29,151 bases of DNA. Source: an uncultured archaeon. GTDB lineage: Archaea > Iainarchaeota > Iainarchaeia > Iainarchaeales > 0-14-0-20-30-16. This document shows, piece by piece, positions 13,224 through 28,117 of the stretch. Under the pieces are notes generated by a model. That model was not told the origin of the DNA, ran no database searches, and saw nothing but the letters and a program-made list of their open reading frames with translations. Every line of letters starts with the position of its first letter. Within the stretch, counting starts at the first letter, position 1. The position numbers and the translations under genes were made by a program. The stretch spans positions 1 through 29,151 of the forward strand of contig CAYZSS010000009.1 in assembly GCA_964480435.1 (NCBI GenBank), read 5' to 3'.

Positions 13224-13262
13224 AATTGAGTCCTTTCTTTTTAAAAAATAAAAAGAAGATAG

Positions 13263-13336
13263 TGGGAATGCCCGGATTTGAACCGGGGACCTTCCGATTA
13301 TCAGTCGGATGCTCCACCAGACTAAGCTACACTCCC
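13263..13336 (-). tRNA. tRNA-Ile (anticodon GAU), no intron, no encoded CCA
   Basis: I folded the cloverleaf by hand. The acceptor stem is GGGAGTG/CATTCCC (one G-U) and the D stem is GCTT/GAGC. The anticodon stem is TCCGA/TCGGA with loop CTGATAA. The T arm is CCCGG-TTCAAAT-CCGGG and the discriminator is A. Confidence 0.9.
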
Positions 13337-13431
13337 ACAGGGATTTTAAAAAATCCTATGCTGGCAAAATGACCATATCCCTAAAGGGATATTCCTTGCT
13401 TTTTCCAAAAACTTCACTTAAGTATAATCTT

Positions 13432-13475
13432 TGTAAGTTGCCCAAAAGAAAGGCATTTCGCTAGTTTTTTATAAG
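13432..13475 (-). repeat. tRNA-associated conserved motif, copy 1 (5' flank of tRNA-Ile)
   Basis: On the plus strand, tgtaagttgcccaaaagaaaggcatttcgc at 13432-13461 matches 27517-27547 with 3 substitutions and 1 indel. A ttataa box follows in both copies. Confidence 0.6.
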
Positions 13476-13681
13476 AAAAAAACAAGCTTACTCTTTTATA
13501 TAAGAGATTTAATGCAAATTGTTTTTAAAGGTTAGCCTTATTTTGTGCTTTTTTAGGGGTACCAGTTTTTTTGCGGGTGTGCAAACATTTTGCAAAGCTT
13601 TAAATAAGCTCTGGTTTGCTGTTTGTTGTGGTTTTTTAAATGTTGTGTTGTGGTTAATATATATTAACTTTTTATAGTGGT

Positions 13682-14614
13682 ATGGTGGGCTTCTTGAGTA
13701 AAGAAACTAAAGATATTAAAGATATATTTGTTGTTGGAGTTGGATCTCTTGGATCCTGTTTAGGGCTAAAATTAGCTGCTACAGGGCATAATGTTACTCT
13801 TCTTAGGAGTAGTAAGATTGCTGACTTTAAAGAAGGAAAAATTGCTTATATAAATGATAAAGAATACAAAATCCCAAAAATTGTTGAAAAAATACCCGTT
13901 TCTGCAAAATTTGACTATCTTTTTGTTACATGTAAACTTTATGATCTTAGAACATTATTAAAAGAAATAGCTCAAAAAGACATTAAATTTAATCTAATTA
14001 TATCAATACAAAACACTCTGTTTGATGATATGTGGTATTTTGATTATATTAAAGATAAACCGTTTTCTATTGTATCTGTTTATGAAGGTTATTACCTTAA
14101 AGGAAATAAAATTACAGTATCTGAACTTAAGGGCTGGTTTGTTGAAGATGATATTTTAGGAAAAGATGTAAGTAATATTTTGAATGATGCTGAAATAAAA
14201 ACAGGATTGGTATCTGATTTGCGTAGACTTAGAGCTGAAAAAACAGTGTTAAATTGTTTTTTAAATGCTTTATCCGCAATTGAAAATATGACTTTAAAAC
14301 AAATGTATGATAATATAAGAGTAAGAAAAAGAATGAAAGCAATATTTAATGAAACTTATGATGTTTTATCAGAGTTAGTAAAAATGAAAGCAAAAAGAAT
14401 GTTGTGGCAAGAGCTGATTAATAGGGTAAAGGAAATGAATCACTATTCAAGTACTTGGCAAGATGTTACAAATGGACGTAAAACAGAAGTTGCTTTTCTA
14501 AATGGATATATTGTAAGTTTAGGAAAAAGTCTTGGAAAATCAACTCCTGAAAATATAAACATAGTTGAAGAGTTCAGAAAAAAACACCCTGCTTTGTACT
14601 ATGTTCAGATATAA
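13682..14614 (+). CDS. panE: 2-dehydropantoate 2-reductase (ApbA/PanE family)
   Basis: The N-terminal Rossmann motif is VVGVGSLGSCLGLKLA. The C-terminal block STWQDVTNGRKTEVAFLNGYIV matches the PanE S-x-x-QD-x-x-x-G-R-x-TE-x-x-x-x-NG signature. Confidence 0.8.
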   Translation: MVGFLSKETKDIKDIFVVGVGSLGSCLGLKLAATGHNVTLLRSSKIADFKEGKIAYINDKEYKIPKIVEKIPVSAKFDYLFVTCKLYDLRTLLKEIAQKDIKFNLIISIQNTLFDDMWYFDYIKDKPFSIVSVYEGYYLKGNKITVSELKGWFVEDDILGKDVSNILNDAEIKTGLVSDLRRLRAEKTVLNCFLNALSAIENMTLKQMYDNIRVRKRMKAIFNETYDVLSELVKMKAKRMLWQELINRVKEMNHYSSTWQDVTNGRKTEVAFLNGYIVSLGKSLGKSTPENINIVEEFRKKHPALYYVQI

Positions 14615-26619: not shown

Positions 26620-27444
26620 ATGGCTATAAAAGTTATTACAATTAATTCAGAAACTGCTGATTTTAAATTTGCTGAATCTTTAAAAAATAATCGGCAAAAA
26701 AGATCAAAAAGTCAACTTTTTTTTGTAGAAGGCGTTAACTCAATTAATTTATTAATTGAAAATAATTGGAGTATTGATACTCTTATTTATTCAACAGAAA
26801 AAAAACAATCTGACTGGGCAAAAAATATAATTAAAAAAACAGGTGCAAAAACTCATTTGGATATGAAATATAACTTGCTTAAAAAATTAAGTGATAAAGA
26901 GGAAACTTCTGAGATTATTGCTTTAGTAAGTATGCCTAAAGATGATTTGCCAAAAATTAAAATTAAGAAAAATCCTCTTATTGTAATCCTTGATAGACCT
27001 GCAAGTCCTGGAAATTTAGGCACAATAATTAGGTCTTGCAATAGTTTTTTAGTAGATGGCATAATTATCACTGGCCATGCAACGGATTTGTATGATCCAA
27101 AAACAATACTTGCTAGTGTGGGATCTATTTTTTCAATTCCAATTGTTAGGCTAGAATCACATAATAAAATAAAAATTTGGTTGGACAAATTAAAAATAAC
27201 ATTTTCTGACTTACAAATAATTGGAACTTCTGCAAAAGCAAAGAACTTTATAAATAATTATGATTTAACAAAGCCTACTGTTCTGCTTGTAGGTAATGAG
27301 ACTAATGGGCTAAGTTTTAATTACAAAAATATGTGTGATTCTTTATTAAAAATACCTTTGTTTGGATCTGCATCATCTTTAAATGTGGGTTGTGCAACAG
27401 CTATATTTTTGTATGAAATTAATAATCAAAGAAAAAAAAAGTAA
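26620..27444 (+). CDS. SpoU/TrmH-family RNA 2'-O-methyltransferase
   Basis: SPOUT motifs are LDRPASPGNLGTIIRSC, LLVGNETNGLS and IPLFGSASSLNVGCATAIFLYE. There is an N-terminal substrate-binding-like domain. Confidence 0.8.
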   Translation: MAIKVITINSETADFKFAESLKNNRQKRSKSQLFFVEGVNSINLLIENNWSIDTLIYSTEKKQSDWAKNIIKKTGAKTHLDMKYNLLKKLSDKEETSEIIALVSMPKDDLPKIKIKKNPLIVILDRPASPGNLGTIIRSCNSFLVDGIIITGHATDLYDPKTILASVGSIFSIPIVRLESHNKIKIWLDKLKITFSDLQIIGTSAKAKNFINNYDLTKPTVLLVGNETNGLSFNYKNMCDSLLKIPLFGSASSLNVGCATAIFLYEINNQRKKK

Positions 27445-27485
27445 AAGAATCCCGCCTCCCGGACTTGAACCGGGGATCTTTCGGT

Positions 27486-27743
27486 TACTGCCCTTTTTCT
27501 TTCGCGAAAGAAAAAGTGTAAGCTGCCCAAAAAGAAAGGCGCTTCGCGTAATTATAACCTTTTTGCTTTTACGTTCTAAGTTCATCAATTGTAAACAAAG
27601 TGCCTTTATGGCACAATTTTTCTTTTGGTGAACCAAGAAGCTTTTTGCTTTAAAGGCAAAAAGTTTCAGGGCCTTAAGAACTTTTCTTTTGAAAAGTTTC
27701 TTATTGCTTATGCTTTTCTTTTTTTTAAAAAGAAAAGAATCGT
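27486..27743 (-). other. tRNA-Tyr intron (258 nt, hairpin-rich)
   Basis: Loop nt C32-U35 can pair with intron GCAG (plus strand 27488-27491). That leaves 3-nt bulges AG|A and UA|A, giving a BHB central helix. There is a perfect 24-nt palindrome at 27493-27516 and several other A/U-rich hairpins. Confidence 0.7.
27517..27558 (-). repeat. tRNA-associated conserved motif, copy 2 (inside the tRNA-Tyr intron)
   Basis: On the plus strand, tgtaagctgcccaaaaagaaaggcgcttcgc is followed by a ttataac box. It matches 13432-13475. Confidence 0.6.
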
Positions 27744-27886
27744 CTACAGCCGAACGCATTAGCCACTATGCTAAGGCGGGATACCTTATTTTTTGTTTTA
27801 CGCTTTTTCAAAATAGAAAAAGTGTTACTCGATTATTATTCTAATTGTTGTAAATCTTTATAAATCGTTCCCTGCTAAAGTCTAAT

Positions 27887-28117
27887 TAGTAGTAGGTGGC
27901 CAGCTCCCGTAAGGAGGAAGGTCCGCCCATCCATTATGTGAGAAGAATCCAGAAATGGGTAGCAAAACTAACAGAAATAAACCACCGTAAGCTTACTGTG
28001 ATAGAAAATTGAGGTGCTTGTGGTCAGGATGAAAAATAGTTCTGCTTCACGGATGCAAGCATATGCGCTCAGATTAATGCTGGCTGAAAACAGAAGGCGG
28101 CCTATAGCCTACTGCTA
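27887..28117 (+). ncRNA. rnpB: RNase P RNA (archaeal, size-reduced, about 231 nt)
   Basis: The CR-I-like sequence is GGAGGAAGGTCCGCCC and the CR-V-like sequence is AACAGAAGGCGGCCTAT. A 10-bp P1 helix forms between 27887-27896 and 28108-28117 (one G-U). P2 is GGCC/GGCC and a short P3 hairpin is CTCC-cgtaa-GGAG. A TATA-like tttataaa lies at 27857-27864 and a T-run follows at 28121. Confidence 0.8.

Follow-up and report, generated by a model that had tools for sequence, protein, structure and literature searches.

Two motif copies at tRNA genes of an Iainarchaeota archaeon probably belong to one family of short, triplex-type repeats found at tRNA borders and in tRNA introns

We consider it probable that the two copies of a motif shared by the flank of tRNA-Ile and the intron of tRNA-Tyr belong to one Iainarchaeota family of short repeats, which is spread as small mobile or recombining inserts and persists where inserted sequence is removed. 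Both copies lie in the window (the whole stretch of 29,151 nt of archaeal DNA that was analysed). A small mobile insert is a more likely explanation of them than a promoter that splits the tRNA-Tyr gene, which was among the readings offered when the motif was first noticed from the letters of the window. That first interpretation (hereafter the original prediction) is, as a whole, partly supported.

The window is contig C9 of a genome (G000) of 724 kb in 30 contigs, with 30% G+C and 77% completeness. It was compared with isolate STB_43 of the same genus (G001) and with relatives in a neighbouring genus (G003, G005, and G006); we take the relatives' group to be Candidatus Iainarchaeum, a DPANN lineage. 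Leaders were surveyed over 170 nt upstream of all 33 tRNA genes in G000, and an nhmmer profile built from 15 tRNA leaders was run on the same genome with E values up to 0.06. The order-wide sample comprised 151 genomes in 66 genera, an exact 21-mer was scanned through 185,579 species genomes (the GTDB species set), and seven family genomes, 77-86% complete, were compared for mobilising enzymes. Hairpin and mirror symmetry were scored by script; the variable hairpin halves could not be aligned by MAFFT. At the gathering score Rfam gave no family for the motif, tRNA-Ile and RNase P RNA being the sole matches in the window, and a literature search found nothing on such tRNA-border repeats in Iainarchaeota.

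The first copy lies upstream of tRNA-Ile, among the following features:

13262-13336, minus strand: tRNA-Ile(GAT) (ARAGORN; Rfam tRNA, 71 bits)
13337-13394, minus strand: proximal complete short-type module, touching G1 (nhmmer leader-profile match, E 9e-4)
13405-13428, minus strand: 24-nt block, the 5' part of other G000 leader modules (95-96% matches elsewhere)
13432-13475, minus strand: the motif at Ile, a decayed 5' half of a long-type module (complete orthologue in G001; 89% over 35 nt)
13493-13504, minus strand: second TATA-like box, a candidate promoter element (from sequence only)

Re-reading of the minus strand at 13475-13432 and, in the tRNA-Tyr intron, at 27558-27517 returned the letters as quoted in the original prediction. 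Between the two cores of about 30 nt (13461-13432 and 27547-27517) there are three substitutions and one T indel, and TTATAA precedes each core. The Ile copy keeps the TTATAA region (13475-13464), followed by GCGAA, a T/C block, and the linker GGGCAACTTACA (13461-13432); with its three substitutions and one indel it has neither the hairpin nor the GGCAG tail found in complete copies. The 96 nt between it and G1 of the tRNA consist of the 24-nt block and the complete short-type module. This proximal module is built of an upstream hairpin (13394-13373), a T-run with linker (13372-13357), a T/A hairpin (13356-13341), and a 4-nt tail, an architecture that precedes 14 tRNAs in G000; its two hairpins are those described originally, the second stopping 4 nt before G1 (13336). 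Matches to the 24-nt block were found at C18:104-128 in a tRNA-Glu leader and at C8:24666-24689 and C8:1449-1471 in tRNA-Arg and tRNA-Ser leaders. This flank further contains the TGCAAA..TTTGCA palindrome and both 9-nt direct repeats, and 13337-13681 has no ORF of 80 aa or more, as had been reported. The remainder of the 345-bp region is divergent intergenic sequence with an AT-rich box about 25 nt before the ATG of a plus-strand ORF at 13682, probably the promoter of that gene.

In the congener G001 the tRNA-Ile orthologue is 99% identical, its upstream flank is homologous, and a complete long-type module stands directly at G1. By BLAST this G001 leader matches the Ile copy at 89% over 35 nt (E 1e-4) and the module in the tRNA-Tyr intron of the window at 93% over ~70 nt (E 1e-23). 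Since the whole module is at G1 in G001 and other module pieces lie in between in the window, the Ile motif is a displaced, decaying relic. An older Ile unit was pushed away from the tRNA by later arrivals, leaving its outer half to decay.

The same two matches place the similarity of the two loci far beyond chance. The proposal that one motif is shared by both loci therefore stands; the suggestion that it is peculiar to these two does not. A chance resemblance of AT-rich low-complexity sequence might have been entertained, given a genome of 30% G+C in which BLAST of the two copies alone yields 16 nt at E=8.9. It is opposed by the identities to G001 copies (93% over ~70 nt for one leader and 100% over 65 nt for the Tyr module), by a G/C-containing 12-nt linker that is near-invariant in 25 copies, and by the 21-mer scan of the GTDB species set, in which one of 34 contigs is a chance match. 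On these sequence comparisons chance resemblance of the two copies is already refuted, and we give it next to no weight.

The second copy lies within tRNA-Tyr, where the features are:

27744-27780, minus strand: tRNA-Tyr(GTA) 5' exon, positions 1-37 (100% identical in G001)
27696-27743, minus strand: 5' part of the intron, a diverged inverted module (T/A hairpin 27739-27713, then a linker-like stretch)
27560-27695, minus strand: middle of the intron, three further hairpins of the kinds seen in G000 tRNA trailers (79-80% matches at other G001/G002 loci)
27486-27559, minus strand: 3' part of the intron, an intact long-type module (65/65 nt identical in G001)
27450-27485, minus strand: tRNA-Tyr 3' exon, positions 38-73 (exon/intron comparison)
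27888-28116, plus strand: archaeal RNase P RNA, showing that the enzyme which removes tRNA leaders is encoded (Rfam RF00373, 109.5 bits)

The intron measures 258 nt (27743-27486) and occupies site 37/38, with the 5' exon ending at G37 (27744) and the 3' exon starting at A38 (27485). The acceptor arms of the two exons pair. ARAGORN misses the gene in a default run; with -i it finds the gene and mislabels it Asn. The intact module consists of the TTATAA region (27559-27548), GCGAAG with T/C block and linker (27547-27517), a hairpin (27516-27493), and the tail GGCAGTA (27492-27486). The hairpin is the 24-nt palindrome noted originally, 12+12 nt with 100% complementarity, and it stops 7 nt before the 3' exon. 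At the other end of the intron, the inverted module is of a kind that follows tRNA 3' ends elsewhere; its hairpin has a folding energy of -7.5 kcal/mol (z -2.5), and this 5' part, which the Tyr intron of G001 lacks, has matching repeats at other places in G001 and G002.

Four relatives also use site 37/38 of tRNA-Tyr. Where the module is lacking the intron has 47 nt (G003), 61 nt (G005), or ~100 nt (G006); with the module it has 121 nt in G001, again with the module at the 3' end, and 258 nt in G000. Outside the 65/65-nt identical module, neither the intron nor the flanks can be aligned between G000 and G001. To judge from these sequences the 37/38 intron is ancestral, and the intact Tyr unit enlarged a short intron that was already there. 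By inspection, CUGU (positions 32-35) of the anticodon loop pairs with GCAG of the unit tail, leaving the bulges AGA and UAA. All Tyr introns compared end in GCAG plus two nt, which gives the central 4-bp helix and both 3-nt bulges. An outer intron-intron helix (h') can have 1 bp in G000 and is equally weak in G005 and G006; it has 3 bp in G003. One homologue of the splicing endonuclease EndA, of 174 aa, is encoded in G000.

Several further observations were made around this gene. A 126-aa ORF at 27379-27759 on the minus strand runs through the Tyr intron and 3' exon and is almost certainly spurious. The RNase P RNA gene is divergent from tRNA-Tyr, with a palindromic TTTATAAA box ~30 nt upstream, between the two genes (27840-27887). 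An integrase-like frame of 412 aa lies in G001 about 460 nt downstream of tRNA-Tyr (C23:22726-23232), and none is found at the matching place in the window. G006 and G002, which are assigned to different genera, have tRNA-Tyr loci that are identical over the whole stretch compared; this may reflect cross-contamination of bins or a shared population.

When copies were compared, the full unit proved to be a non-coding, interspersed repeat of 50-75 nt in the order upstream hairpin (optional), T/C block, linker, T-run/A-run hairpin, and GGCAG tail. The linker GGGCAACTTACA has 12 nt and is near-invariant in 25 copies from ~20 genomes. The GCGAAG sits in the 3' arm of the optional upstream hairpin, and the TTATAA..GCGAAG..CC stretch appears to line up with both arms of that hairpin in full-length units. 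In the leader modules of G000, a T run is followed by a GGCAACTTAC-type linker and then by a T-run/A-run hairpin with a CAG-like tail; many of these modules also carry the upstream hairpin or the GCGAAG block. A pairing of GCGAAG..CC with the linker, taken from an RNA fold, was dropped because the Glu-CTC and Phe copies do not preserve it. In contigs titled Aenigmatarchaeota archaeon RIFCSPHIGHO2_02_FULL_36_49, an NCBI label unlike that of the other module-bearing MAGs, an extra GC-rich hairpin is nested within the T/A hairpin of the module copies.

The main hairpin has one pyrimidine and one purine arm, and the T/C block is an exact mirror of the pyrimidine arm. This was true for 22 of 22 distinct long-type variants, over 9-15 nt, with no mismatch and a fixed register, and the mirror score was reached by none of 2000 partner shuffles. 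The match persists although the positions of C differ from copy to copy, and between orthologous Phe leaders of G000 and G001 the T-run length has been altered in both blocks together. In the Tyr copy, the T/C block within 27540-27529 mirrors the arm within 27516-27505; the Ile relic retains just the third block and the linker of this design. Such a mirror relation allows an intramolecular pyrimidine-purine-pyrimidine triple helix to form from the unit; as predicted from the letters, a third block that runs parallel to the purine arm corresponds to an intramolecular triplex of the pyrimidine motif. The unit has the three consecutive blocks of PIT-type repeats, in which a hairpin is accompanied by a block mirroring one of its arms.

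This design invites the reading that the unit acts in RNA, as a stability or processing element: in leader and 3'-intron copies, two U-rich strands would clamp the A-rich arm as a U.A-U triple helix shortly upstream of an RNase P or splice site, either protecting the released RNA or presenting the cleavage site. The perfect mirror covariation across genomes is consistent with such a role, as are the A-rich arm ending 5-7 nt before the cleavage site, the RNase P RNA encoded in the window, and the precedent of MALAT1, whose triple helix lies next to its tRNA-like mascRNA (PMC8457004). Pyrimidine-motif triplexes are able to form in RNA; purine-motif triplexes are reported not to (PMC4666352), and roughly half of the copies stand in inverted orientation to the tRNA, which would call for a purine-motif RNA triplex. 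The third strand would moreover be missing from the RNA if transcription starts at GGG, and many tRNAs of G000 carry no unit. Taken together, we regard an RNA-level role as distinctly unlikely.

We then return to the repeat family itself, whose distribution is centred on tRNA genes. About half of the 33 tRNAs of G000 (15-17 leaders) have a module ending 0-7 nt before G1. The search of the genome and of related MAGs that the original prediction had proposed showed enrichment next to tRNA genes: the nhmmer profile gave 41 matches in G000, and at least 26 of them lie within a few nt of tRNA exons or fragments. Among these, 14 are at 5' ends, two at intron 3' ends (Tyr on C9 and Thr on C11), three before duplicated tRNA 3' ends, five inverted right after 3' ends, and two around a duplicated 5' piece of tRNA-Thr(GGT). 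At eight tRNAs, a module 60-80 nt downstream is fused to a copy of the tRNA's own last 12-21 nt, and this copy starts at T54 in six of the eight. The GGCAG end of the unit always points towards the exon: units that precede a 5' end or a 3' exon are in direct orientation, and those that follow a 3' end or a 5' exon are inverted. In relatives, introns of 72-90 nt consist of a single inverted module and a remainder of 20-28 nt that still ends in a GCAG/CAG-type sequence.

Across the order, the core of the unit (T/C block to tail) was found at 78-92% identity in 32 of 151 genomes and 20 of 66 genera. The exact 21-mer occurred on 34 contigs, 33 of which are archaeal with real modules, most of them titled Ca. 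Iainarchaeum and including the complete genome GW2011_AR10; the sole bacterial match has no hairpin and was rejected as chance. In both samples about two thirds of the inspected copies adjoin tRNA exons. The motif is clearly not absent from other tRNA loci and from relatives, since a family exists in the genome and in the order, and the concern that the similarity might come from a generic repeat is half right: the motif is a repeat, but one concentrated at tRNA borders rather than scattered generically.

Copies in other settings were also seen. In G000, a module lies in frame in the N-terminal region of two small pilin-like ORFs (C4:4419-4462, plus strand; C8:10601-10559, minus strand), where it precedes a G-Q site and a hydrophobic segment and its hairpin encodes basic residues; the N-terminal segment that carries it is, as far as the sequence tells, another one likely to be cut off. 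At C10:20380-20560 a 19-nt duplicate of the tRNA-Thr(GGT) 5' end, ending in the D loop, lies just upstream of the real gene and is flanked by one direct and one inverted module. At C28:4870-4970, C15:5440-5530, and C11:1280-1620, identical units made of a small GC hairpin and a module are arranged in tandem and run into N stretches; on C15 the unit also has a 12-nt tRNA-Arg tail. Another conserved leader hairpin, of the AACGGGAAAGTTTGTTCCC type, abuts the 5' ends of tRNA-Cys, Leu-CAA, and Glu-TTC in G001, and in G000 it was found at C23:5690-5735, inverted, after a module and 193 nt upstream of tRNA-Cys.

Comparison of G000 with its congener revealed orthologous sites that are occupied in only one of the two genomes; where the flanks were compared, they are homologous. 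The Val-TAC leader has two modules in G000 and none in G001; the Pro-TGG leader has a 72-nt insert in G001 and none in G000; and the Ile-TAT leader has a 68-nt insert in G000 and none in G001. Each of these three inserts sits precisely at the junction of the older upstream region with G1. The trailers of Arg-TCG and Ile-GAT also differ in unit content between the two genomes, and the tRNA-Thr intron has 104 nt in G000, with the module at its 3' end, versus 35 nt in G001. Filled and empty orthologous sites between congeners show that the element comes and goes. Many short non-coding copies together with presence or absence at orthologous sites, as in MITE-like elements, are what we observed for the unit. 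A remnant of an element that targets tRNA loci, one of the alternatives listed in the original prediction, is the best-fitting of them, in view of a tRNA-border repeat in 32 of 151 genomes that is present or absent between congeners.

In the mechanism that we propose, the units would spread as small mobile or recombining DNA inserts and would persist at places where the cell removes inserted sequence anyway. The tRNA-associated copies would be removed by RNase P, tRNase Z, and the splicing endonuclease, and the two in-frame pilin-like copies by signal-peptide cleavage. At tRNA-Ile and tRNA-Tyr, the units would be co-transcribed as a long leader or an intron, respectively, and then cut away. 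Several findings weigh against such mobile inserts. No cognate transposase was found among the families searched (RVT_1, Y1_Tnp, and integrases) in genomes that are 77-86% complete: reverse transcriptase (RVT_1) was found in none of the seven family genomes and a Y1 (IS200-type) transposase (Y1_Tnp) in one, a relative, and the tyrosine recombinases look like one housekeeping Xer-type gene per genome, with one in G000, apart from the integrase beside tRNA-Tyr that is found in G001 only. Target duplications are irregular (12 to ~57 nt), and inverted unit pairs bracket exons rather than clearly ending one element. The exact abutment to RNA-processing sites is hard to derive from DNA transposition and selection alone, and the strong conservation of the linker and of copies next to exons could point to a role for the host rather than to selfish spread. 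A more far-reaching and tentative version, which we hold to be possible though improbable, would make the units vehicles for the growth of archaeal tRNA introns and flanks: triplex-forming elements that home to RNA-processing sites (the tRNA 5' end, the 3' end, and exon-intron junctions), whose GGCAG supplies the splice pairing and which survive as stable, triplex-capped small RNAs exposing the 12-nt linker.

The original prediction had instead read the TTATAA box and the conserved sequence after it as a shared promoter and initially transcribed leader. A shared promoter or leader role of the motif is possible from its sequence. In its full form, as a portable promoter-plus-leader cassette, the TTATAA-like box would be a TATA box and the T/C block a proximal element, with transcription starting at GGG, a leader of ~105 nt for tRNA-Ile, and a separate transcript of the Tyr 3' half joined as in split tRNAs; this we judge unlikely. 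In the Tyr and G001 Ile copies the box does start 28-29 nt ahead of the GGG behind the T run, a distance that would suit an archaeal promoter, in a genome of 70% A+T; AT-rich boxes lie ~21-36 nt upstream of GGG in two leader copies from other genera, and the 5' part of the Tyr intron resembles a tRNA trailer with T5 runs. However, the unit conserved across the order begins at the T/C block and not at the box, the box seems to align with the 5' arm of the upstream hairpin, and box and GG are 7 nt closer together in the type represented by the 24-nt block. Inverted copies after exons and copies in short introns are mostly without the box, and neither kind can be the promoter of the tRNA. In addition, the Val-TAC, Pro-TGG, and Ile-TAT units are inserted between an older upstream region and G1, so that the native promoter can drive them. 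Units that touch G1 leave no room downstream, and the promoter must therefore lie upstream of such modules; for tRNA-Ile this means upstream of 13394, which makes a leader of at least ~60 nt likely.

The part of this reading that concerns tRNA-Tyr fared worse. Split-tRNA-like expression of its 3' half is not supported, given the ancestral 37/38 site, the splice motif that has been kept, and the lack of GC-rich complementarity between the flanks of the two halves; only A/T-run complementarity was found there, at best 12 nt at 92% or 21 nt at 71%. The halves are collinear on one strand and 258 nt apart, and not at separate loci as those of a split tRNA are. Introns of 70-110 nt in the relatives are mostly one module with no room for a promoter and must be read through, including their T5 runs.

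A structural role in DNA offers a further explanation. Here a hairpin or H-DNA would serve the host as a two-way terminator, an insulator, or a hot spot of recombination, protecting tRNA genes against integrating elements or transcription from next door. On either strand the T-run/A-run palindromes look like archaeal oligo-T terminators, the mirror repeats are of the H-DNA type, and bacterial intrastrand-triplex repeats have been linked to local genome variability (PMC4666352). Yet a strong terminator before G1 or within introns would block essential single-copy tRNAs, and the bacterial triplex repeats showed no promoter or terminator activity (PMC4666352). We therefore hold a host role of this kind to be very improbable.

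The repeat family that we favour can be set beside several known systems. Like the bacterial BoxC/PIT/TMECO triplex repeats (Holder et al., 2015; PMC4666352), the unit is short, non-coding, and interspersed, and has a hairpin with a mirror third block. Both the PIT repeats and the archaeal unit are highly conserved, have no linked transposase, and occur in locally variable genome contexts (PMC4666352). The PIT repeats are bacterial and have no tRNA link reported in that paper, whereas the archaeal unit has the 12-nt linker and the GGCAG tail and is found mainly at tRNA borders and in introns. Transposition of tRNA introns in Thermoproteales has been described (Fujishima et al., 2010, as presented in PMC4090602 and bioRxiv 10.64898/2026.10.13.758758). 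As in that case, related intervening sequences recur across tRNA genes and positions of one genome, as the splicing motif permits. In contrast to those introns, the unit is also present in leaders, trailers, tRNA fragments, and the N-termini of two protein genes, and wherever this was checked it had lengthened an intron already present, at its junction with the exon, and had created no new one.

The split tRNAs of Nanoarchaeum equitans (PMC3491384; PMC4033280) likewise resemble the Tyr locus, in which a promoter-like conserved leader stands before the 3' half and a trailer-like sequence after the 5' half. In a Nanoarchaeum-type split tRNA, GC-rich complementary sequences of ~12-14 nt follow the 5' half and precede the 3' half; the Tyr halves are collinear at a canonical intron site, relatives have short introns there, and there is no GC-rich pair. 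Integration of the pNOB8/SSV type, as at tRNA-Thr of Caldiarchaeum (PMC3293823), shares with our units the duplicated tRNA pieces beside inserts and the variability among close relatives. Our inserts differ in having 60-100 nt and no recombinase gene, and they also occur at intact 5' ends and intron junctions. In MALAT1 and MEN-beta (PMC8457004; PMC4836648), too, an RNase P site is directly preceded by an A-rich tract and two U-rich strands. That arrangement is eukaryotic and proven in RNA, whereas the archaeal one is predicted from sequence and inapplicable to the inverted copies.

A 2026 census of tRNA introns in Asgard archaea found no general route of arrival (bioRxiv 10.64898/2026.10.13.758758). 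For annotation, the unit explains tRNA genes that are missed or mislabelled by standard tools in these genomes. Among comparative data, the strict mirror covariation makes an unusually clear case for selection on folding into a triple helix, in DNA or RNA. For the origin of archaeal tRNA introns, the repeat has been caught enlarging introns, leaders, and trailers between two congeneric species, and with clean filled and empty sites at hand, the growth of introns and leaders can be studied directly.
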